Shown: positions 1,308 to 52,373 of the stretch, piece by piece
Numbering within the stretch: the stretch's first letter is position 1
Layout: each line of letters begins with the position of its first letter
Origin: a virus
Lineage: Duplodnaviria > Heunggongvirae > Uroviricota > Caudoviricetes
DNA: 64,000 nt
Virus record (IMG/VR): IMGVR_UViG_2880412407_000002
Reading direction: 5' to 3' (one strand)
Translations under genes and position numbers: made by a program
Notes under the pieces: generated by a model
Seen by the model: the letters and a program-made list of their open reading frames with translations, nothing else
Told to the model about the DNA's origin: nothing
Databases searched by the model: none

Positions 1308-3743
1308 TTAAAAATCAGCCTGACTCGGGAGCAGTTTTTGCCAGATGGCTGAAACGTATTTCGCCTGGTAACGTGCATCGTTCAGAGCGTTATGGCGTTC
1401 ACCTTCGAATGGAATAGTCGTTCTTGCGTCGAAATCCATCACCAGTCCCAGAGCAACCATCGTTCTTACATCGCGATCATTGGTGTAACGACATGGGCAG
1501 GGGATCCCCTGCCGTTCATATGAACGGCGTAAAATCACGTTGTCGAAAGTTGCACCGTTACCCCAGACCTGAACAAAAAATTCACCGGAGTTTTCGTCGA
1601 TAAATTCCCGTAATTGCAGCAGTGCATCATCTAACGGGATTTCATCGGTAAGAATGGCGGATTGCGCTTCGCGTGACTGTTTCAGCCACCACTTAATGGT
1701 GTCCCGATCAATGACTCCGCCAGCAGTTTCCAGATCGATAGTTTTGCTGAATTCTGGCCCCATCTCTCCGGTTTGCGGATCGAAAAATATTGCACCTATT
1801 GAGATAATCGGGGCATCAGGATTTTTTCCCATTGTTTCAAGGTCAATCATCAGATGGTGCCACAACCTGCTGGTGGATGTAATTTCACGATGACCGTTCA
1901 CCTTAATTAAGGGATTTGCTGTCTCGCCACTTTCATTATCTGTGGTGTGGTAGTGATCGCCGCCACTGCCTTCCATTTCCTCCTGAGCTTCAGCCTGATT
2001 TTCTTCATCGAATGTTTCCTGGCAGGTTGCGTCGCCCATCACCGCGCCACAATCAGGGCAGTTGCCGCCACCACTCTGACCGCAGGCGGTACAGACTTTT
2101 TCCTCTTCCTGTTGCGCTACTGGTTCGGATTGTTTCGTTTCTGGCTCGTCTTGTAACGCATTTGGGCTGTTTTGTTCCGCTTTTTGGTCGTTCTGTTCCG
2201 TTTCTGACTGGTTCTGGTTCACAGAATCGCAGGTTTCAATCCCCTTCACCCATTTCGGATCATTCGGGTCGCTAATCCCTTCAACAAATTCACCACGTGA
2301 TGCAGCAAGCAATTTATCGGCGTCAGGCTGGCTGATATTGGCTGCCTGCATAATTTTGTTTACTTCGTCAGCGGTAACTTTTACCGGCTCCGGTTGTACG
2401 GAATCTTCAGCGGTATCCACATTTTGCGGTAAGTCCGTGTATGTTCCGTTTTTGCGGGCAAGATATTCTTCTTTCGTGATTTCAGTAGCCCCGGCAGCCA
2501 GCGCCTTGTCCAGACCAGAAAGTTTGTTTGCGCGACCGTATTTTTCGCCATCCTTGTCGGTGAAGAGGAAGTAGAACGGCCCCTCACGCTCTACAGATGG
2601 TTCGACTTCCACTTTGCATTCGGTTTTTTCGTTGTCCGGAATTGCCGTTTCCACTGCATCAGTTTCTGGTACTGGCGACGAGAGAGTATCAGTTGCGCTC
2701 TGATTTCTTCCTTCATCTTCAAACACGCCCTTTGTAGTCAGGTATTCAGTAATGTATTTGTTCAGTGCCACAGGGTCTTTGTGAATGTCGATCGGACGTT
2801 CACGGACAAGGCCAAAAATAGTCTGGCGGCTGTAGCGAAGCGCATCAGGTTGTTTGCGCATTGATGCGGAGATGCGCTTCCAGTCTTCGCGATCTCTGGC
2901 GATAACTTCATTTTTAGCCCAGCGAAGGATGCTGCCGTCAATGTTTCCGGCATCCACATCACCAGGCCAGAGAGCGTAGGCCAGTTCGTCATCCAGTGTT
3001 TTCCATGTCTGCTTGTATTCGCGATGAGTGGCAGCAATGACCGGGCTGATTTTTCCTGTTGAATTGTCAGTGTACTGTTGATTGGCTCTGGCGCGGGCGA
3101 GATCAACAACAGACGTGTATTTTCCGGTTTCCTTGCGTTCACCTTCGCGACGTTTTTTCCAGATGCGCATCTCTGCCTGAATTTCGGGCCATTTAGCACC
3201 AGGAATACATTTATGCTTAACCCACCCAATGGCGTGCAACTTAAGCTCCGGATACATGGCGTTAACTTCTGGCATTTTCATCAACGCTTCAACGATATGT
3301 CCGTCGAATGTTGCCATGTCTTCCTGCAACAATTCCTGTGCGCTAATAACCATATCAACGGTGATGTTTTCACATGTGTCGAACTTAACCAGGACCGCGT
3401 TCTGTACTTCAGGGGACAGCTTGTCAAAATTGACGTTCATCGGATCGGATTCTGGTTCGACCGGAATAAAGGAAGCGGATTCCTCATCCCAGCAGTTTTC
3501 CTGCATATATTCGGTATCCCAGGAGTCGATGGCAGGGCGGGGCATGCCGGGTTTATCCTCGCAAACAAGAAATTTATAAGCGCAGTCCTGAGCAGCCGGA
3601 TATTGCTCCAGGAATTGCCAGGTAAATTTGGCTCGGGCGCGGCGTTCGTCGCCGGCTTCAATGGCAGTGGCTACAGCGACTGCACCTTCTTCCTTTATTG
3701 CCTGTTCGTCCGGAATGGCGGCGCAAATAAAGACTTTACTCAT
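1308..3743 (-). CDS. Large phage exonuclease-like protein with C-terminal DnaQ-like (DEDDh) 3'-5' exonuclease domain and a CxxC...CxxC zinc ribbon
   Basis: 811 aa; C-terminal motifs DLET, FDN and HNALNDA; occupies the exo position of the early-left operon. Confidence 0.65.
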   Translation of the reverse strand: MSKVFICAAIPDEQAIKEEGAVAVATAIEAGDERRARAKFTWQFLEQYPAAQDCAYKFLVCEDKPGMPRPAIDSWDTEYMQENCWDEESASFIPVEPESDPMNVNFDKLSPEVQNAVLVKFDTCENITVDMVISAQELLQEDMATFDGHIVEALMKMPEVNAMYPELKLHAIGWVKHKCIPGAKWPEIQAEMRIWKKRREGERKETGKYTSVVDLARARANQQYTDNSTGKISPVIAATHREYKQTWKTLDDELAYALWPGDVDAGNIDGSILRWAKNEVIARDREDWKRISASMRKQPDALRYSRQTIFGLVRERPIDIHKDPVALNKYITEYLTTKGVFEDEGRNQSATDTLSSPVPETDAVETAIPDNEKTECKVEVEPSVEREGPFYFLFTDKDGEKYGRANKLSGLDKALAAGATEITKEEYLARKNGTYTDLPQNVDTAEDSVQPEPVKVTADEVNKIMQAANISQPDADKLLAASRGEFVEGISDPNDPKWVKGIETCDSVNQNQSETEQNDQKAEQNSPNALQDEPETKQSEPVAQQEEEKVCTACGQSGGGNCPDCGAVMGDATCQETFDEENQAEAQEEMEGSGGDHYHTTDNESGETANPLIKVNGHREITSTSRLWHHLMIDLETMGKNPDAPIISIGAIFFDPQTGEMGPEFSKTIDLETAGGVIDRDTIKWWLKQSREAQSAILTDEIPLDDALLQLREFIDENSGEFFVQVWGNGATFDNVILRRSYERQGIPCPCRYTNDRDVRTMVALGLVMDFDARTTIPFEGERHNALNDARYQAKYVSAIWQKLLPSQADF

Positions 3744-3823
3744 TTTGTTTTAACCTCATTACAGATTTAAGGGTGAACAAATCCCTGCCATTGCTGGCAT
3801 ATAAAAATGAAACCGGATATTAA

Positions 3824-4033
3824 TTACGGTGCTGTTTTAAGTCCTGCCGGGATTTCGTTATTGTCCATGCGAATAACTTTATCAACCGGATAACAGTTGC
3901 CGGGAATTTTCTGTTCCGCTGCGGCAGCCATGCATTCTTTCATTGAGTCATGTATACCAATAACAAGATCGACTGGCTCGCCTGTATTAAGAAAAACCGT
4001 CAGAACGAGTGCAAATACTGTATTCATTGTCAT
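3824..4033 (-). CDS. Small protein, YdfD-like (Qin family)
   Basis: 69-aa ORF with hydrophobic N-terminus; its ATG overlaps the upstream stop (ATGA), suggesting translational coupling. Confidence 0.45.
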   Translation of the reverse strand: MTMNTVFALVLTVFLNTGEPVDLVIGIHDSMKECMAAAAEQKIPGNCYPVDKVIRMDNNEIPAGLKTAP

Positions 4034-4212
4034 CGTCCTTTTTGCATCAGGCGTAAACGGGCCAGCATTGAAACAATGCATATTTGATTTAATAGCTCCC
4101 GTTCGTGTTTTCTCTTATTAATGGCATCTTCAGTAAATACAGGGTTACTGATTCTGACACCAATTTCAAAACAACCTTCAGACGTATTGACGTTTGGTAA
4201 TAACGTTTCCAT
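4030..4212 (-). CDS. dicB: DicB-like cell-division inhibitor
   Basis: 60-aa ORF METLLPNVNTSEGCFEIGV...SMLARLRLM recalled as matching Qin DicB; lies directly downstream of a DicF-like RNA. Confidence 0.55.
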   Translation of the reverse strand: METLLPNVNTSEGCFEIGVRISNPVFTEDAINKRKHERELLNQICIVSMLARLRLMQKGR

Positions 4213-4395
4213 TATCGCATCCTCAACAATGAATTTTGTGATGCGGTGCCTGGTGCCTCCAGGTGACGTTAACCAGTTAATAATTAACGCCGGATACAGA
4301 GAACCCACCCATAAGAACCAATACGGAAGTCAACTGGCCTTTTTAACTGTTCCGCGTGCGCTGAGCCGCATTCACCGCATCACAAAATTCACTTT

Positions 4396-4455
4396 AAAAA
4401 GGGCGGGTATCACAAGGGAAAACAAAAAACGGATACCCGCCAAAAGGTAATCAAC
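4396..4455 (-). ncRNA. DicF-like sRNA variant (terminator hairpin plus U-tail, divergent 5' region)
   Basis: Minus strand reads ...uuuuGGCGGGUAUC-20 nt loop-GAUACCCGCCCuuuuu; same position and architecture as DicF but different 5' sequence. Confidence 0.35.
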
Positions 4456-4788
4456 ATGGGTTGTTGCAGCGGGGTTGTCACTTAAGCGTATGGTCAACCT
4501 GACAACCCGGTGTCCTCAACGGGGAAGGAATAACCCCGCCATACTTACCGCCGCGCCATTTCGCGGATTGCCACAACCGGAAGCGCACAGACGAAGATGT
4601 CAGTGGTACACAACAAAGGGAGGAATGACTTCGCCGTGCGCTTTCGCGTTATGCCCTGACTTTTCAGGGATATATCCTTTCAGTAAACTGTTTGTGCCGG
4701 ATTCTTATCCGTGTCCGGCGCACGACCATGCGCTGTCACGTGTGGTCTCCATTCTCAACCAGTAACCTCAATGGAGGATAAAATTAAA

Positions 4789-5088
4789 ATGGTCAGCAAA
4801 CTAAATCAGACTCGCTGGAAGATTCATTATGAAACAGCGCGTTTAAATTATATTCTTGAATGTTTTGGGGATAACCTTGCTGCTGAGGAAGGCTATCCAA
4901 ACCATGTCGATGGTTTCGAAGCGATATATCTTTATCTATCCCGTAAACATGGATGGACTATTTCACAGTGTCGTTTAATGCCACTGGATGATATTCGCCT
5001 TGCTCTTTCGTTAGAGCTATCAGGGTGGCGACTCCCTGATGATGCAAAGATTGACGACCATCATTCTCACGATGATATAAGTTGTTAA
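4789..5088 (+). CDS. Hypothetical small protein on the opposite strand
   Basis: GGAGG RBS before the ATG; counterpart with the same start context but different sequence in prophage 2; overlaps the 3' end of a minus-strand ORF. Confidence 0.3.
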   Translation: MVSKLNQTRWKIHYETARLNYILECFGDNLAAEEGYPNHVDGFEAIYLYLSRKHGWTISQCRLMPLDDIRLALSLELSGWRLPDDAKIDDHHSHDDISC

Positions 5089-5347
5089 GTTCCAGTAGTT
5101 TGGCTTTTGCAATGACCTCTACAGATTTCCAGAATTTGTGGGGGTCTGTACTCTCTTCCTGTTCGTCAGGAATGTTATTGTCCTCAACAGAAACAGAATA
5201 CAGTCCGGTAAACGCATCGCGCACATTACGAGCCATATTATCAATGTCTTTTTTCGTTTCAGCTTCTAATGCAACTTCGTTCAGACGTTGACGAAGTGTA
5301 TGTGCTGCAATTTCTTGGATTTCTTTTGGTAACTCTTTAAATTCCAT
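4958..5347 (-). CDS. Hypothetical early-left protein (N-terminus conserved in both prophages)
   Basis: GAGG RBS; N-terminal 65 aa (MEFKELPKEIQEIAAH...) shared with ORF 51123-51512. Confidence 0.4.
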   Translation of the reverse strand: MEFKELPKEIQEIAAHTLRQRLNEVALEAETKKDIDNMARNVRDAFTGLYSVSVEDNNIPDEQEESTDPHKFWKSVEVIAKAKLLELNNLYHRENDGRQSLHHQGVATLIALTKEQGEYHPVALNDTVK

Positions 5348-5358
5348 AGTCAACCTCA

Positions 5359-5511
5359 TCAGTCAGTGTTTCTGGCTAACCAGCGATGCGCGCCAGTTTC
5401 GGTTTTAAACGTTTTGCTTTTGGTATACGTTATCGCGGTGAACGTACCGTCCTGGTTGGGAAACACGCCGCATACCAGAGATTCACTGTTGCCAAGATCG
5501 ATAGTATCCAT
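5359..5511 (-). CDS. YdfA-like small protein
   Basis: 50-aa ORF MDTIDLGNSESLVCGVFPNQDGTFTA...; homolog at 51654-51809. Confidence 0.5.
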   Translation of the reverse strand: MDTIDLGNSESLVCGVFPNQDGTFTAITYTKSKTFKTETGAHRWLARNTD

Positions 5512-5689
5512 GTTGACCTCATTTCCCCTTAACGCCGGGGGAGCGGAACAAAAACCTGCTGCATAGTTAAAGTTGAACCCTGCCGTCATGTTCTTACGCC
5601 TCGGGCTGGCTACTTAACCCCTGACCACTGCCTGGTAACTCGAAGTATTGCCCTGCGTTCTGTGGGGCGGGGTGGGTGGTATGCTGGAA

Positions 5690-5760
5690 CTATAGGTAAT
5701 GCCTAATTGATTGTCAATAGGCTATGCCTAATGTTTTGATCGTAACCTAATAGGTGATGG
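5690..5760. promoter_or_regulatory. Candidate operator cluster for the leftward early promoter (ATTAGGC/GCCTAAT repeats)
   Basis: Three or more GCCTAAT-type motifs between the racR-like gene and ydfA-like gene; same motif as in the divergent region 6304-6426. Confidence 0.35.
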
Positions 5761-5826
5761 CGACAGCAGAAAGTGATGGGGGGTTAAATAACGGAATCCA
5801 GGAGTTTTCCGTCAGACCATATAAGT

Positions 5827-6303
5827 TTAAGTTCCAGTTTTTGTGATGTTCTGGCTTTTCCGTTCAGATTCTAGAGCTTTCAGATACTTACCCACTTTCA
5901 TTTCCATCGCTGCTATGTAGGCGCGAACATCGTGGTCAACCCAATCTGGTTCTGTAGCATTTCCAGATAACAGGAAAGCTACAATCGCTCTTATTTCATC
6001 AGAGGCTGCTTGATAAAGGTTGTTTATATCTAAAAGTTCACTTTTTGTATCTGAATTGGTGGGGGTTGGTATGGGGTATTCGTTAAGCCCCCAATGCTCT
6101 GGACCAACAACATCAGAAAAGAAACGCCATAATTCTGGAAGTTTATCTTTACTTATAGAGCCTTTCTTAATCCAGTCATAAATTGATGGTGGTTGGACTT
6201 TGAAGTGGCGTGCGACCTCCGCCTTTGATTTGACGGATCCCGATGCGATTTTTTTGTTAATGGCCTGCTCTATCGCTCGGCCTAAGTCTTTACCACTAAG
6301 CAT
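5827..6303 (-). CDS. racR: RacR-like prophage repressor (HTH)
   Basis: 158-aa ORF divergent from Cro-like and YdaT-like genes; recalled as matching RacR. Confidence 0.65.
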   Translation of the reverse strand: MLSGKDLGRAIEQAINKKIASGSVKSKAEVARHFKVQPPSIYDWIKKGSISKDKLPELWRFFSDVVGPEHWGLNEYPIPTPTNSDTKSELLDINNLYQAASDEIRAIVAFLLSGNATEPDWVDHDVRAYIAAMEMKVGKYLKALESERKSQNITKTGT

Positions 6304-11519: not shown

Positions 11520-11984
11520 ACTGGCCTGAAGCATTTGCAATTACAGGCGTTGCTATGGCTATCGCTTTTTTAGTATATGTTATTTGTCGGTGAGGGTAAA
11601 AACGTTCGCCGGGATTAACACCAAAGGAGGGAATATGTCGGATGATATATCACTGGCAATGGAAGGTGCGCTGGCTGTTGTTGCTGTTGTGGGCGTTTAC
11701 TGCCTGGTTGTGTTTTTGATGGATCGACTAGGGAACTGAATTCATTACGATATGGGAATTCCCATATCGGGTAAAAACGGTTTGCGGTAAAGCGAGAGTT
11801 AAGTAGAATTGCTGCGGGTGCTTGAGGCTGTCTGCCTCGGGCATGCCACCGTAAGGCAGACAGAGAAAAGCCCCAGTTAACATTACGCGTCCTGCAAGAC
11901 GCTTAACATTAATCTGAGGCCCAATCTATGCTTCACAAACGTAGGTTAGCCTCTTACGTGCCGAAAGGCAAGGAGAAGCAGGCT

Positions 11985-12140
11985 ATGAAGCAGCAAAAGG
12001 CGATGTTAATCGCCCTGATCGTCATCTGTTTAACCGTCATAGTGACGGCACTGGTAACGAGGAAAGACCTCTGCGAGGTACGAGTCCGAACCGGCCAGAC
12101 GGAGGTCGCTGTCTTCACAGCTTACGAACCTGAGGAGTAA
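11985..12140 (+). CDS. hok: Hok-family type I toxin; mok-like in-frame upstream extension from 11928
   Basis: 51 aa MKQQKAMLIALIVICLTVIVTALVTRKDLCEVRVRTGQTEVAVFTAYEPEE; structured leader upstream. Confidence 0.75.
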   Translation: MKQQKAMLIALIVICLTVIVTALVTRKDLCEVRVRTGQTEVAVFTAYEPEE

Positions 12141-47235: not shown

Positions 47236-49707
47236 TCAAAAATCAGCCTGACTCGGGAGCAGTTTTTGCCAGATGGCTGAAACGTATTTCGCCTGGTAAC
47301 GTGCATCGTTCAGAGCGTTATGGCGTTCACCTTCGAATGGAATAGTCGTTCTTGCGTCGAAATCCATCACCAGTCCCAGAGCAACCATCGTTCTTACATC
47401 GCGATCATTGGTGTAACGCCATGGGCAGGGGATCCCCTGCCGTTCATATGAACGGCGTAAAATCACGTTGTCGAAAGTTGCACCGTTACCCCAGACCTGA
47501 ACAAAAAATTCACCGGAGTTTTCGTCGATAAATTCCCGTAATTGCAGCAGTGCATCATCTAACGGGATTTCATCGGTAAGAATGGCGGATTGCGCTTCGC
47601 GTGACTGTTTCAGCCACCACTTAATGGTGTCCCGATCAATGACTCCGCCAGCAGTTTCCAGATCGATAGTTTTGCTGAATTCTGGCCCCATCTCTCCGGT
47701 TTGCGGATCGAAAAATATTGCACCTATTGAGATAATCGGGGCATCAGGATTTTTTCCCATTGTTTCAAGGTCAATCATCAGATGGTGCCACAACCTGCTG
47801 GTGGATGAGATTTCATGATGACCGTTCACTTTAATTAAGGGATTTGCTGTTTCGCCAGTTTTATTATCGCTGGCGTGATACTGATCGCTGCCAGTGTTCT
47901 CCTTGTGCAGATGTTCAGTGCCTTCCATTTCCTCCGGATCATTTTTCTGAGCTTCAGCCTGATTCTCTTCATCGAATGTTTCCAGGTAGGTTGCGTTCCC
48001 CATCACCGCACCACAGTCAGGACAGTTGCCGCCACCGGTCTGACCGCATGCGGTGCAAACTTTTTCCAGTTCCTGTTGCACTGCTGGTTCTGGTTGTTGT
48101 TCTTCTGGCCCGTTTTGTTGCGTATCCGGGCTGTTTTGTTCCGCTTCTGGCTCATTTTGTTTCACGTTGGGCTGATTCTGGTCCTCAGCGTCGCGACTCT
48201 GGATCCCTTTCACCCATTTCGGATCATTCGGGTCGCTAATCCCTTCAACAAATTCACCACGTGATGCAGCAAGCAATTTATCGGCGTCAGGCTGGCTGAT
48301 ATTGGCTGCCTGCATAATTTTGTTTACTTCGTCAGCGGTAACTTTTACCGGCTCTGATTGTTCGGAATCTTCAGCGGTATCCACATTTTGCGGTAAGCCC
48401 GTGTATGTGCCATTTTTTCGGGCAAAATATTCTTCTTTTGAGATTTCGGTACCGCCGGCAGCCAGCGCCTTGTCCAGACCAGAAAGTTTGTTTGCCCTGC
48501 CGTATTTTTCCCCGCCCTTATCGGTAAAGACGAAATAAAATGGTCCTTCACGCTCTACAGATGGTTCAGCTTCCACCAGGATTTCATTTTTTTGAGTATC
48601 GGATTCTGCCGTCTCCACTGGAGCAGTTTGTGCTGCTGACGGCTGGAGAGCATCAGTAGAGCTCTGGTCTGTTTCTTCATGTTCAAACACGCCCTTTGTC
48701 GTCAGGTATTCACTGATATATTTGTTCAGTGCAACGGGATCTTTGTGAATATCGATCGGACGTTCGCGAACAAGGCCAAAAATAGTCTGACGGTCATAGC
48801 CAAGTGCTTCGGGCTGTTTGCGCATTGATGCTGAGATACGCTTCCAGTCTTCGCGATCCTTGTCGATAACCTCATTTGTCGCCCAGCGATGGATGGTACC
48901 GTCAATGTTTCCTGCATCCACATCACCGGGCCAGAGGGCGCAGGCCAGTTCATTGTCGAGTGTTTTCCATGTCTGTTTGTATTCGCGGCGAATGGCAACA
49001 GTGACAGCCCCGGTTTTTTCAGCAGCGTTTTCAGTGTTCTGTTGGTTGACTCTGGCGCGGGTGAGATCAACAACAGACGTGTATTTTCCGGTTTCCTTGC
49101 GTTCACCTTCGCGACGTTTTTTCCAGATGCGCATCTCTGCCTGAATTTCAGGCCATTTAGCGCCAGGCTCACATTTATGCTTAACCCACCCGATGGCATG
49201 CAGTTTAAGTTCAGGATACATGGCGTTAACTTCTGGCATTTTCATCAACGCTTCAACGATATGTCCGCCGAATGTTGCCATGTCTTCCTGTAGTAATTCC
49301 TGTGCGCTAATCACCATATCAACGGTGATGTTTTCGCATGTGTCGAATTTAACCAGGACTGCGTTCTGTACTTCAGGGGACAGCTTGTCAAAATTGACGT
49401 TCATCGGATCGGATTCTGGTTCGACCGGTACAAAGGAAGCTGACTCCTCATCCCAGCGGTTTTCCTGCATATATTCGGTATCCCAGGAATCGAGGGCAGG
49501 GCGGGGTATGCCGGGTTTATCCTCGCAGACAATAAATTTATAAGCGCAGTCCTGAGCTGCCGGGAATTGCTCCAGAAATTGCCAGTGAAATTTTGCGCGT
49601 GCGCGACGCTCATCACCGGCTTCAATGGCAGTGGCCACCGCAACAGCGCTATCTTCTTTTATGGCCTGTTCGTCAGGAATAGCAGCGCAAATAAAGATTT
49701 TACTCAT
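47236..49707 (-). CDS. Large phage exonuclease-like protein (DnaQ-like C-terminal domain), divergent paralog
   Basis: 823 aa; conserved termini, divergent acidic central region relative to 1308-3743. Confidence 0.65.
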   Translation of the reverse strand: MSKIFICAAIPDEQAIKEDSAVAVATAIEAGDERRARAKFHWQFLEQFPAAQDCAYKFIVCEDKPGIPRPALDSWDTEYMQENRWDEESASFVPVEPESDPMNVNFDKLSPEVQNAVLVKFDTCENITVDMVISAQELLQEDMATFGGHIVEALMKMPEVNAMYPELKLHAIGWVKHKCEPGAKWPEIQAEMRIWKKRREGERKETGKYTSVVDLTRARVNQQNTENAAEKTGAVTVAIRREYKQTWKTLDNELACALWPGDVDAGNIDGTIHRWATNEVIDKDREDWKRISASMRKQPEALGYDRQTIFGLVRERPIDIHKDPVALNKYISEYLTTKGVFEHEETDQSSTDALQPSAAQTAPVETAESDTQKNEILVEAEPSVEREGPFYFVFTDKGGEKYGRANKLSGLDKALAAGGTEISKEEYFARKNGTYTGLPQNVDTAEDSEQSEPVKVTADEVNKIMQAANISQPDADKLLAASRGEFVEGISDPNDPKWVKGIQSRDAEDQNQPNVKQNEPEAEQNSPDTQQNGPEEQQPEPAVQQELEKVCTACGQTGGGNCPDCGAVMGNATYLETFDEENQAEAQKNDPEEMEGTEHLHKENTGSDQYHASDNKTGETANPLIKVNGHHEISSTSRLWHHLMIDLETMGKNPDAPIISIGAIFFDPQTGEMGPEFSKTIDLETAGGVIDRDTIKWWLKQSREAQSAILTDEIPLDDALLQLREFIDENSGEFFVQVWGNGATFDNVILRRSYERQGIPCPWRYTNDRDVRTMVALGLVMDFDARTTIPFEGERHNALNDARYQAKYVSAIWQKLLPSQADF

Positions 49708-50356: not shown

Positions 50357-50414
50357 AAAAAAGGGCGGCAGAGCAGTCACGGAGTAAAACTGATACCGCC
50401 AAATGTCACCAGAA
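50357..50414 (-). ncRNA. dicF: DicF sRNA
   Basis: Minus strand reads uucuggugacauuuggcgguaucaguuuuacuccgugacugcucugccgcccuuuuuu, recalled as matching E. coli DicF. Confidence 0.7.
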
Positions 50415-52085: not shown

Positions 52086-52373
52086 TCAGATAGAGAAGGG
52101 AAATTGTCGCCGAGAATGTGTCACGCTTACAATCTCAATGCTTGAAGCAGCTACTCTGTACAGGATTATGTAGTTAGGGTGGGTCACGATCTCTCTCAAT
52201 CCAGAAACCCGTTCGCTTGGTGGATATAAGTACGGATGCTCAGATAGAGGTAATACCGATGTTTCAATGCGTATTTTTAGTCTACGTGCTGCCGGTGGGT
52301 TCTCCTTGGCGATGTAAGTTATGATCTGGCGCAAATCATCGCGAGCAGACGGTAGCCATAAAATGGGTAACAT
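52086..52373 (-). CDS. Type II toxin, ParE/RelE family
   Basis: 95-aa ORF whose ATG overlaps the upstream antitoxin stop by 1 nt. Confidence 0.6.
   Translation of the reverse strand: MLPILWLPSARDDLRQIITYIAKENPPAARRLKIRIETSVLPLSEHPYLYPPSERVSGLREIVTHPNYIILYRVAASSIEIVSVTHSRRQFPFSI

Follow-up and report, generated by a model that had tools for sequence, protein, structure and literature searches.

The question raised by this locus is what a protein of 811 residues, ending in an exonuclease domain, does just upstream of the excisionase and integrase genes of a prophage. The window, that is, the whole 64,000-nucleotide stretch of IMG/VR record IMGVR_UViG_2880412407_000002 that was analysed, holds two prophages in tandem, and each of them encodes such a protein.

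The gene, its copies and their conservation

The main open reading frame (1308..3743, minus strand) is complete in the list of open reading frames, starts with ATG and encodes 811 amino acids; RefSeq lists the product as '3'-5' exonuclease' (WP_032212635.1). The second copy, in the tandem prophage, lies at 47236..49707, also on the minus strand, and encodes 823 amino acids, in agreement with the preliminary description, which had placed a protein of about 810 residues at the exo position of both prophages. The two proteins are 86% identical, the gene at 1308-3743(-) shows 100% identity to O121:H19 chromosomes, and PHROG 2082 matches the 811-residue protein over its full length. The divergence between the copies, earlier described as mainly central, could be placed more sharply: the predicted disordered linkers have diverged (48-64% identity, dN/dS 0.54-0.63), whereas the folded domains are kept (87-100% identity, dN/dS 0.00-0.16), with dS between the compared copies reaching 0.9. 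This is a gene under purifying selection, not a chance open reading frame.

Of 5426 complete E. coli genomes, 4797 (88%) have a match to the gene, often in multiple copies, and full-length copies are present in 3463 genomes as well as in viable phages. Homologues occur in the viable phages Tritos, HannyBb and mEp460 and, as the pseudogene ydfE, in K-12. The genome counts, the existence of PHROG 2082 and the tabulated Tritos module described below contradict the rarity that the first account of the locus had implied. The search for full-length homologues returned E. coli sequences only, all with at least 89% identity, and informs on abundance, not on diversity. In many cases the RefSeq name of the homologues is '3'-5' exoribonuclease', and the newer Pfam families PF27430 and PF27432 are precomputed on homologues. 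Some of the copies in E. coli genomes are IS-interrupted. The K-12 gene exoD (DLP12) was considered as a C-terminal fragment of the same family and rejected as unrelated.

Domain organization

All features of the protein are given here with their minus-strand coordinates. The N-terminal part (residues 1-206; 3126..3743) is an alpha/beta plus helical domain and is the part kept in K-12 ydfE. It is followed by a non-catalytic region homologous to RecE (residues 279-613; 1905..2909), recognized by BLASTP and by NCBIfam PRK09709, which comprises a helical domain (245-345), a conserved box (458-502) and the putative zinc ribbon. A small beta/alpha domain (residues 385-435; 2439..2591), modelled by AF2 with pLDDT of 94-97, corresponds to a gap in the K-12 RecE alignment and has dN/dS of 0.03-0.07. 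The putative zinc-ribbon motif, read from the sequence, consists of four cysteines (2049..2093) spaced as C551-x2-C554-x7-C562-x2-C565, and the same CxxC-x7-CxxC arrangement is found in K-12 RecE. Between the copies this motif is 95% identical (dN/dS 0.02), and the linkers on either side of it contain 25-28% Asp plus Glu, as expected from the acidic linker with a four-Cys zinc ribbon that had been noticed before. The C-terminal domain (residues 629-801; 1341..1859) is a DEDDh 3'-5' exonuclease domain (PF16473) according to Pfam, PDB sequence match and multiple alignment. The protein is composed of a scaffold and a catalytically intact DEDDh domain, joined via disordered acidic linkers.

Structure comparison of the full AF2 model with the PDB by Foldseek gave no informative neighbour of the scaffold (best E = 0.6), and no match of the scaffold below E = 0.001 was obtained in BFVD. 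A profile search that included distant N-terminal domains gave just 35 matches, most of them partial. In the full-length AF2 model the DEDDh domain has low confidence (pLDDT < 50) because few DEDDh sequences were in the alignment; its assignment is based on the sequence evidence, not on this model.

The nuclease domain and its relatives

PF16473 (Rv2179c-like 3'-5' exoribonuclease) matches the domain over model positions 1-177 of 177 with E = 3.5e-64 and a score of 216.2 bits, for which the cut-off is 27. Catalytic residues D634, E636, D734, H784 and D789 correspond to D7, E9, D119, H186 and D191 of DexA, and the DEDDh residues are invariant in 6 of 6 aligned sequences (both copies, two distant relatives, the EcD-like protein described below and T4 DexA). 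The DnaQ-like DEDDh domain at the C-terminus, proposed from inspection of the letters, is borne out by the Pfam match and by the presence of all five catalytic residues on alignment; the nuclease is likewise not of the lambda-Exo or RecE type, Pfam giving DEDDh instead, and membership of a well-characterised family with a known partner was not found. By homology, the domain would be of the type that trims DNA or RNA from 3' to 5'.

Its closest characterised relatives are DexA of phage T4 and EcD, a defence exonuclease of E. coli. DexA is the PDB sequence match of the domain (8KEL, E = 2e-8; 8KEN), and host DNA scavenging is among the roles described for it. A 189-residue EcD-like exonuclease, whose sequence was obtained via the primers given in the EcD paper (PMC12153337), is 38% identical to the domain (E = 5e-35) and has A78 at the position of DexA D90, matching the published EcD. 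This tetramer-forming Asp is kept as D706 in the present protein, unlike the Ala in EcD. At the position of DexA Trp152, both copies have Thr754, the two relatives Tyr and the EcD-like protein Trp; the equivalent Trp is reported to be needed for cutting of 5hmC or T4 DNA (PMC12153337). DexA D169 pairs with D770 by HMMER or with L767 by MAFFT, in a region with indels.

Relation to RecE

Residues ~279-613 are homologous to residues 294-591 of RecE of the K-12 Rac prophage (BLASTP, 2e-47), with 37% identity overall and near-identity from residue 465 onward; the box 'DKLLAASRGEFVxGISDPNDPKWVKGI' is nearly identical in the two proteins. The RecE equivalog PRK09709 covers residues 238-611 only (1.8e-68), and its score of 231.5 bits is far below the equivalog cut-off of 1269. 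No similarity to RecE residues 601-866, the PD-(D/E)XK nuclease, was detected in the window by tblastn. Judged from these alignments, the protein is a RecE-family scaffold in which the nuclease domain has been exchanged. The earlier wording, that the protein is not of the RecE type, holds for its nuclease domain and fails as a claim of independence from RecE, since residues 279-613 are homologous. The non-catalytic part of RecE is likewise without assigned function (PMC11611040).

Some relatives carry the same N-terminal module in fusion with RecE-type PD-(D/E)XK nucleases (P0145, P0194 and P0230). In other relatives a third type of C-terminal domain, represented by ZF40 gp07, has Rad52_Rad22 as its top Pfam match in 7 of 8 members, just below the cut-off. 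Its comparison with human RAD52 by hhalign aligned the expected motifs with a probability of 1% (E = 0.049), and profile searches of the PDB found nothing for it; this third type is probably a Rad52-like annealase. The fusions to RecE-type nucleases and to the domain matching Rad52_Rad22 suggest that the scaffold is recombination-associated. It is as constrained as the nuclease domain, and it is common to RecE.

Operon context and Chi sites

A candidate pL-like promoter (TTGACA-17-TATAGT; 5689..5717, minus strand), which is a consensus match only (11 of 12 positions in a consensus scan), heads the leftward early operon that includes the gene; no promoter-like site comparable to it was found by the scan directly upstream of the gene. 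The upstream neighbours in the operon, by RefSeq annotation, are dicB (4030-4212) and a ydfD-like DUF1482 gene (3824-4027), and downstream are an excisionase-like DUF4224 gene (998-1240) and a tyrosine integrase gene (1-1020), all on the minus strand. Lying directly upstream of xis-int, the gene is at the recombination-module position; its modular product belongs to the early-left operon of Rac/Qin-like lambdoid prophages.

Searches of the window by tblastn (E < 1e-3) detected no RecT, Bet, lambda Exo, Gam or RecE-type nuclease; the best hit of lambda Exo had E = 0.079, and the 811-residue protein has no Pfam match to it. No partner recombination gene was annotated by RefSeq at the identical locus or found in a PHROG scan of neighbouring open reading frames, so the earlier remark that no RecT- or Bet-like gene is adjacent stands on all three approaches. 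Absence of SAP, SSB and anti-RecBCD genes was judged by tblastn for RecT, Bet and Gam, and by PHROG and RefSeq names for the other types. The gene is the phage's sole recombination-type gene.

The window contains 21 Chi sites compared with 2.4 expected, a number reached in 0 of 100 shuffles, and 17 of the 21 are on the plus strand. Prophage 1 has 11 sites on the plus and 2 on the minus strand, and 10 of these 11 plus-strand sites are located in the int-to-lysis half, corresponding to the right end of the packaged genome. One Chi site (GCTGGTGG; 1869..1876, plus strand) is inside the 811-residue gene at the linker/DEDDh junction and adjoins position ~1880, where the ~100% identity between the two prophages ends.

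The arrangement has a published counterpart. Tritos gene TRITO_27 matches 98% of the 811-residue gene at a nucleotide identity of 89.8%, and Table 1 of PMC12315714 (2025, Genome Research) describes the Tritos class as nuclease-positive, SAP-, SSB- and anti-RecBCD-negative and Chi-rich. That paper gives 21/6 to 7/2 as the Chi-site range of the class, and in it both classes with a RecE scaffold, Gifsy-1 and Tritos, are without anti-RecBCD and Chi-rich. The prophages studied here fit this Tritos-type, nuclease-only lambdoid Rec module, and the nuclease-only arrangement without SAP is already catalogued through the Tritos homologue.

Proposed function and alternatives

The best-supported reading, which we infer tentatively and rate as somewhat short of probable, is that the protein is an induction-phase nuclease that trims 3' ends and serves host RecBCD/RecA-dependent recombination. 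The gene would be transcribed from pL upon induction or infection, and the DEDDh nuclease would take nucleotides off free 3' ends of DNA. Its partnership would probably be with the host RecBCD-RecA pathway and not with a phage annealase, because these phages have no annealing protein, no RecBCD inhibitor and many correctly oriented Chi sites. Trimming of 3' tails might turn ends into RecBCD substrates, and the N-terminal scaffold may tether the nuclease to whatever target the N-terminus of RecE addresses. For the Gifsy-1 and Tritos classes, Chi-rich and without anti-RecBCD, cooperation with RecBCD fits better than its inhibition. Homology is the basis here for the substrate (DNA or RNA), the polarity and the partner, and several points count against a RecBCD helper. 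DnaQ-type 3'-5' exonucleases usually lower recombination, as PMC12315714 notes, and a nuclease of this type would destroy the 3' tails used by annealases and RecA; the Pfam family is named for an exoribonuclease, and EcD, the nearest experimentally studied bacterial relative, is reported to be a defence nuclease. In the searches above the scaffold had no informative structural neighbour that could back the tethering idea.

A broader idea, which we consider speculative and doubtful, is that the ~600-residue scaffold is a portable recombination adaptor for interchangeable effectors (the RecE 5'-3' nuclease, the DEDDh 3'-5' nuclease, the probable Rad52-like annealase and a fourth, uncharacterised domain), all directed to a single machine of the host, possibly RecBCD, RecA or the replisome. 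In Chi-rich lambdoid phages without an annealase or a RecBCD inhibitor, it would then be the DEDDh version that prepares DNA ends for the host pathway, and the Chi site at the junction of scaffold and nuclease may aid module shuffling.

The relationship to EcD also suggests a nuclease of prophage defence or superinfection exclusion, in which the DEDDh domain would degrade incoming phage nucleic acid and the scaffold would act as sensor or regulator. Its targets would be modified DNA, as for EcD ('HREX'), which reportedly cuts 5hmC DNA and protects against T4 (PMC12153337), or the 3' ends of RNA phages, as for the ISG20-like 'TONDO' exonucleases; prophage DEDDh enzymes of the latter kind, often with auxiliary domains, reportedly act in defence against MS2 and Qbeta. 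The 38% identity to the EcD-like protein with the published A78, a weak PADLOC match to a CRISPR-associated DEDDh model (E = 1.3e-4) and the persistence of the gene in many cryptic prophages are in line with such a role. We nevertheless regard it as rather unlikely: Thr754 replaces the Trp reported as required for cutting T4 DNA, D706 keeps the tetramer residue that EcD has lost, and PADLOC matched no complete defence-system model. Moreover, the gene lies deep in a repressed pL operon without a promoter-like site of its own in the consensus scan, in viable phages its place is that of the recombination module, its scaffold is common to recombination proteins, and the EcD-like gene is itself an early gene of a P2-like prophage.

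Homology to DexA (8KEL) points instead to a clean-up nuclease that would digest broken DNA or oligonucleotides to mononucleotides while the phage grows lytically, which agrees with the scavenging described for DexA and with presumed expression upon induction. A conserved scaffold of 600 residues under strong purifying selection would be needless for bulk scavenging, and the link with Chi-rich genomes lacking anti-RecBCD would be left unexplained. Lambdoid phages are also not known to degrade host DNA, and we consider this role improbable. Quite unlikely as well is an RNA-directed role, in which the protein, as a Rv2179c-like exoribonuclease, would trim the 3' ends of phage or host transcripts, for example the pL transcript with DicF/dicB upstream and xis/int downstream, and so tune division inhibition or integrase expression. 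The names of PF16473 and of many RefSeq homologues, and the location of the gene between the DicF/dicB segment and xis-int, favour it; DexA and EcD, the two closest experimentally studied relatives found, act on DNA, the scaffold is common to DNA recombination proteins, and no RNA-binding domain was detected in the 811-residue protein. Finally, the mosaic structure with its sharp identity break at the domain junction, the truncated pseudogene that is all K-12 has and the IS-interrupted copies could be taken as signs of a decaying recET remnant, in which illegitimate recombination replaced the RecE nuclease and left a protein without function. This reading is already disfavoured, and we give it very little credence, by the low dN/dS in every folded domain (0.00-0.16, at dS up to 0.9), the intact catalytic residues and the full-length copies in 3463 genomes and viable phages.

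Implications

The gene is among the commonest prophage genes of E. coli, and linear-linear recombineering and direct cloning build on full-length RecE, whose N-terminal two-thirds are homologous to the scaffold described here. An adaptor role of the scaffold, if it serves a host recombination or replication machine, would explain why full-length RecE and its nuclease domain behave differently and how Chi-rich lambdoid phages without an annealase exploit RecBCD, and would open a way into the mosaic exchange between the many prophages that Shiga-toxin-producing E. coli carry. A defence nuclease, should the protein prove to be one, would be very widespread and yet absent from current defence catalogues.

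Comparison with known systems

DexA and EcD share the Pfam-level family and the DEDDh residues with the domain studied here, but each of them stands alone, with 227 and 189 residues, respectively, whereas the present domain is the end of a multidomain protein of 811 residues; DexA is from a virulent phage, and the EcD-like gene lies in a P2-like prophage. Pfam also describes Rv2179c of Mycobacterium tuberculosis, the name-giver of PF16473, as a stand-alone exoribonuclease. The full 177-position model is matched here, while Rv2179c itself gave no direct PDB sequence match to the domain at E < 0.01, and no literature linking it with a prophage was found.

RecE of Rac (exonuclease VIII) has the same operon position, early-left and upstream of xis-int. 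It carries a C-terminal PD-(D/E)XK 5'-3' dsDNA exonuclease instead of the DEDDh 3'-5' domain, the first ~230 residues of the present protein have no sequence relation to it, and no recT follows the 811-residue gene. The ydfE pseudogene of the K-12 Qin prophage is 93% identical to residues 1-256 and is located after dicB-ydfD in the same way; it is truncated by IS2, and nothing from residue ~257 onward, the nuclease included, is left.

The closest systems are the exonucleases of Tritos, HannyBb (CDS0033) and mEp460_ev081, which match 98-100% of the gene at a nucleotide identity of ~90-91%. These three differ only in linker indels (823 versus 811 residues) and in the immunity, replication and integrase modules on either side. 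Tritos and HannyBb are viable phages and, like the prophages here, have no annealase, and Tritos-type phages lack SAP, SSB and anti-RecBCD and are Chi-rich, again as found here. In HannyBb the order exonuclease-xis-int is the same, with unnamed open reading frames upstream, and in Tritos the whole order DicF-dicB-ydfD-exonuclease-xis-int is that of the present locus.

Domain architecture and selective constraint

The gene at 1308-3743 on the minus strand is an intact ORF of 811 aa, and its counterpart in prophage 2 (47236-49707) encodes 823 aa with 86% identity, in agreement with the preliminary description of an ORF of about 810 aa in both prophages. Residues 629-801 matched the Pfam DEDDh family PF16473 ('Rv2179c-like 3'-5' exoribonuclease'; E = 3.5e-64, 216 bits, cut-off 27), which supports the DnaQ-like C-terminus assigned earlier. 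The five catalytic residues (D634, E636, D734, H784 and D789) were all present and invariant in an alignment of six sequences: the two copies, the distant relatives P0124 and P0183, T4 DexA, and a protein resembling EcD, a stand-alone E. coli DexA homologue. The four-Cys zinc ribbon described in an acidic linker was located at C551-x2-C554-x7-C562-x2-C565, and the flanking linkers are 25-28% acidic.

The AlphaFold2 model of residues 1-440 was confident (mean pLDDT 85.8). In it, residues 1-206 form an alpha/beta plus helical domain, residues 245-345 a helical domain and residues 385-435 a small beta/alpha domain. C-terminal to these lie a conserved box with two helices (458-502), then the zinc ribbon and finally the DEDDh domain, and the inter-domain segments are predicted to be disordered. 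Foldseek searches with the N-terminal domains gave no informative neighbour in the PDB (best E = 0.6) and none with E < 0.001 among viral models. Identity between the copies was 87-100% in the folded domains and 48-64% in the predicted disordered linkers. Comparison of copy 1 with copy 2 and with Tritos and HannyBb, two viable E. coli phages carrying near relatives, gave dN/dS of 0.00-0.16 for each folded domain, with linker values of 0.54-0.63. As the low values hold for the folded domains throughout, the N-terminal part is constrained as strongly as the nuclease. Judged from its sequence, the gene appears to be functional and not a relic, and we are highly confident of the identity and architecture of the protein.

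Distribution of the gene

The gene was matched in 4797 of 5426 complete E. coli genomes, with matches covering at least 80% of it in 3463 genomes and a median of two places per genome. Its full-length counterpart is PHROG 2082, and the precomputed Pfam families on homologues are PF27430, PF16473 and PF27432. The ydfE pseudogene of K-12 prophage Qin corresponds to the first 256 residues (93% identical) and is interrupted by IS2. The genes of the viable phages show about 90% nucleotide identity. The order in Tritos is DicF-dicB-ydfD-exonuclease-xis-int, as in the prophages here, and that in HannyBb is exonuclease-xis-int with unnamed ORFs upstream; no annealase was found in either. The family is thus catalogued and extremely common, and the arrangement of a nuclease without an annealase is already in print.

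A RecE-like scaffold with different C-termini

The NCBIfam RecE model matched residues 238-611 (E = 1.8e-68, 231 bits, below the equivalog cut-off of 1269), and residues 279-613 aligned to residues 294-591 of K-12 RecE by BLASTP (E = 2e-47). The two proteins are near-identical in the zinc ribbon and in the box 'DKLLAASRGEFVxGISDPNDPKWVKGI'. Because the homologous stretch is the portion of RecE outside its nuclease domain, the protein is a RecE-family scaffold whose PD-(D/E)XK 5'-3' nuclease has been swapped for a DEDDh 3'-5' nuclease. The preliminary description was correct in that the nuclease is not of RecE type, but it overlooked this relation of the scaffold.

Only 110 relatives of residues 1-280 were found by HMMER among 1.8 billion representative proteins, and domain mapping of the long relatives showed the same N-terminal module fused to four kinds of C-terminus. 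The first is DEDDh and includes P0183, which has the N-terminus of RecE itself. The second is a RecE-type nuclease (P0145, P0194, P0204 and P0230), and Pfam DUF3799 (PDDEXK-like) matches P0145. The fourth is phrog_26058, a group with no assigned function. The third, a 17-member group, had no Pfam match at standard thresholds. It contains a motif, 'DGEAQKKSLTDALKKALSLLGFSADVWLGLYD', similar to the Rad52 signature; Rad52_Rad22 was the top Pfam match in 7 of 8 members, slightly below the cut-off (best E = 0.0015), and stand-alone phage homologues carry mixed annotations, one being 'putative single strand-annealing protein'. Alignment by hhalign with human RAD52 was not significant, and PDB profile searches with this domain gave nothing significant. 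This C-terminus is a probable annealase domain.

Members of the third group, including Pectobacterium phage ZF40 gp07 (3714-5879 of DNA record L034), P0127, P0133, P0135, P0140 and others, carry an 'exonuclease' annotation (phrog_2489, phrog_7838) together with the same N-terminal scaffold, and are probably annealases mislabelled as nucleases. A classification of recombination modules from 314 lambdoid phages (PMC12315714, Genome Research 2025) enters ZF40 as having no annealing protein (SAP); it also notes 'RecE-2' proteins that lack a nuclease domain.

Chi sites and genomic setting

Table 1 of that classification lists a Tritos class of four phages with a nuclease, without SAP, SSB or anti-RecBCD, and with 7-21 top-strand Chi sites; modules without SAP were only 9 of 246 (PMC12315714). 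In the window, Chi (GCTGGTGG) occurs 21 times against 2.4 expected (about 9-fold), a number reached in 0 of 100 shuffles. Seventeen sites are on the + strand (1280, 1869, 7006, 7051, 12686, 12813, 14699, 15016, 20699, 23471, 28395, 47208, 47797, 53618, 60041, 60168 and 63219) and the others on the - strand (13219, 13271, 60574 and 60625). Eleven + sites and two - sites belong to prophage 1, and 10 of its 11 + sites fall in the interval from int to the lysis genes, which forms the right end of the packaged genome. Used as tblastn queries, RecT, the lambda proteins Bet, Exo and Gam, and the nuclease domain of RecE matched nothing in the window at E < 1e-3. An annealing protein, SSB and RecBCD inhibitor were likewise absent from the annotation in RefSeq and from a scan of neighbouring ORFs with PHROG, and these results confirm that no RecT/Bet-like gene is adjacent. 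Both prophages fit the Chi-rich, anti-RecBCD-less Tritos class.

Between 1-1879 and 45929-47807, which span int, xis and the entire DEDDh domain, the prophages differ at just 3 positions (884, 1309 and 1491), and identity drops abruptly to ~80% from 1880. The break falls at residue ~622, the linker/DEDDh junction, immediately beside a Chi site in each prophage (1869-1876 and 47797-47804, both +). The pattern suggests Chi-associated exchange or gene conversion between the two elements, and the junction is a possible hotspot for nuclease-module swapping. The two DEDDh domains differ in a single amino acid, residue 751 (window 1491), which is Cys in copy 1 (CPCRY) and Trp in copy 2, P0124, P0183 and the EcD-like protein (CPWRY); T4 DexA has Cys at the matching position.

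The gene lies within the leftward early operon, downstream of a strong pL-like promoter match (5717-5689, TTGACA-17-TATAGT), and no comparable site was found directly upstream of the gene. The region of the gene is 100% identical to O121:H19 chromosomes of Shiga-toxin-producing E. coli, and the two lambdoid prophages stand in tandem adjoining yccA, each with a Rac/Qin-like early region. In strain 2014C-3599, the annotation reference, IS600 is inserted in prophage 1 (L007 16798-17954), and a coordinate offset of 1274 bp suggests that it is absent from the window, which would then derive from a sister O121 strain. The type III secretion effector gene espK (43756-45117, -) lies between prophage 1, at its right end, and prophage 2. 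Each prophage has a hok/sok type I toxin-antitoxin locus (11816-11990 and 59171-59345, both +; Rfam sok 117 and 107 bits), and a RelE/ParE-RelB pair is additionally inserted beside the repressor of prophage 2 (52086-52373, -). Prophage 2 encodes a canonical DicF sRNA (50363-50414, -; Rfam 77 bits); the corresponding sequence of prophage 1 (~4394-4446, -) resembles DicF but is divergent, lacks 9 nt, differs in its 3' stem and stays below the Rfam threshold. The unannotated gap upstream of dicB holds a sub-threshold match to STnc100 sRNA (4235-4389, -; 33.5 bits, gathering score 47, E = 2e-5).

Possible function

As a tentative reading of the specific function, we propose a 3'-end nuclease that works with host RecBCD-RecA. 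The protein would be produced upon induction or infection and would take nucleotides off 3' ends, acting alongside the host pathway and not a phage annealase. Trimming of 3' tails could possibly make the ends substrates of RecBCD, and the scaffold may tether the protein to the binding target of the RecE N-terminus. Against this reading, DnaQ-type exonucleases usually lower recombination (PMC12315714).

A role in defence seems unlikely. Recombination is favoured over it because the scaffold is elsewhere fused to RecE nucleases and a probable annealase, and because both RecE-scaffold classes in PMC12315714 are Chi-rich and without anti-RecBCD. Scavenging and an RNA-directed role are both improbable, to an equal degree, and a dead remnant is the most improbable of all. 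The explicit RecE-scaffold/DEDDh swap, the exchangeable C-termini on a single scaffold and the fit of both prophages to the Chi-rich class are contributed here.

Comparison with known DEDDh exonucleases

The only PDB sequence match was T4 DexA (8KEL/8KEN), the structure of which has been solved (PMC12153337, NAR 2025). In the same report, EcD is active on 5hmC DNA only and confers protection against T4. An EcD-like ORF of 189 aa was found using primers in the supplement of PMC12153337 and a scan of viral contigs. It has Ala78 where DexA has D90, in agreement with that report, shows 38% identity to the DEDDh domain here (E = 5e-35), and is likely the published 'HREX' defence protein. Its gene (L031 6401-6991, -; also in L010, L015, L025, L026 and L028) is among P2-like prophage early genes, beside a DNA methyltransferase, a gpA-type replication nickase, a repressor and an integrase, and is therefore a phage gene and not a chromosomal defence locus. 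DexA W152, reported as necessary for cutting T4 DNA (PMC12153337), corresponds to Thr754 here; D90 is kept as D706. Prophage ISG20-like DEDDh enzymes, which are reported to defend against RNA phages (PMC13344964, 2026 preprint), form a separate clade from the domain here.
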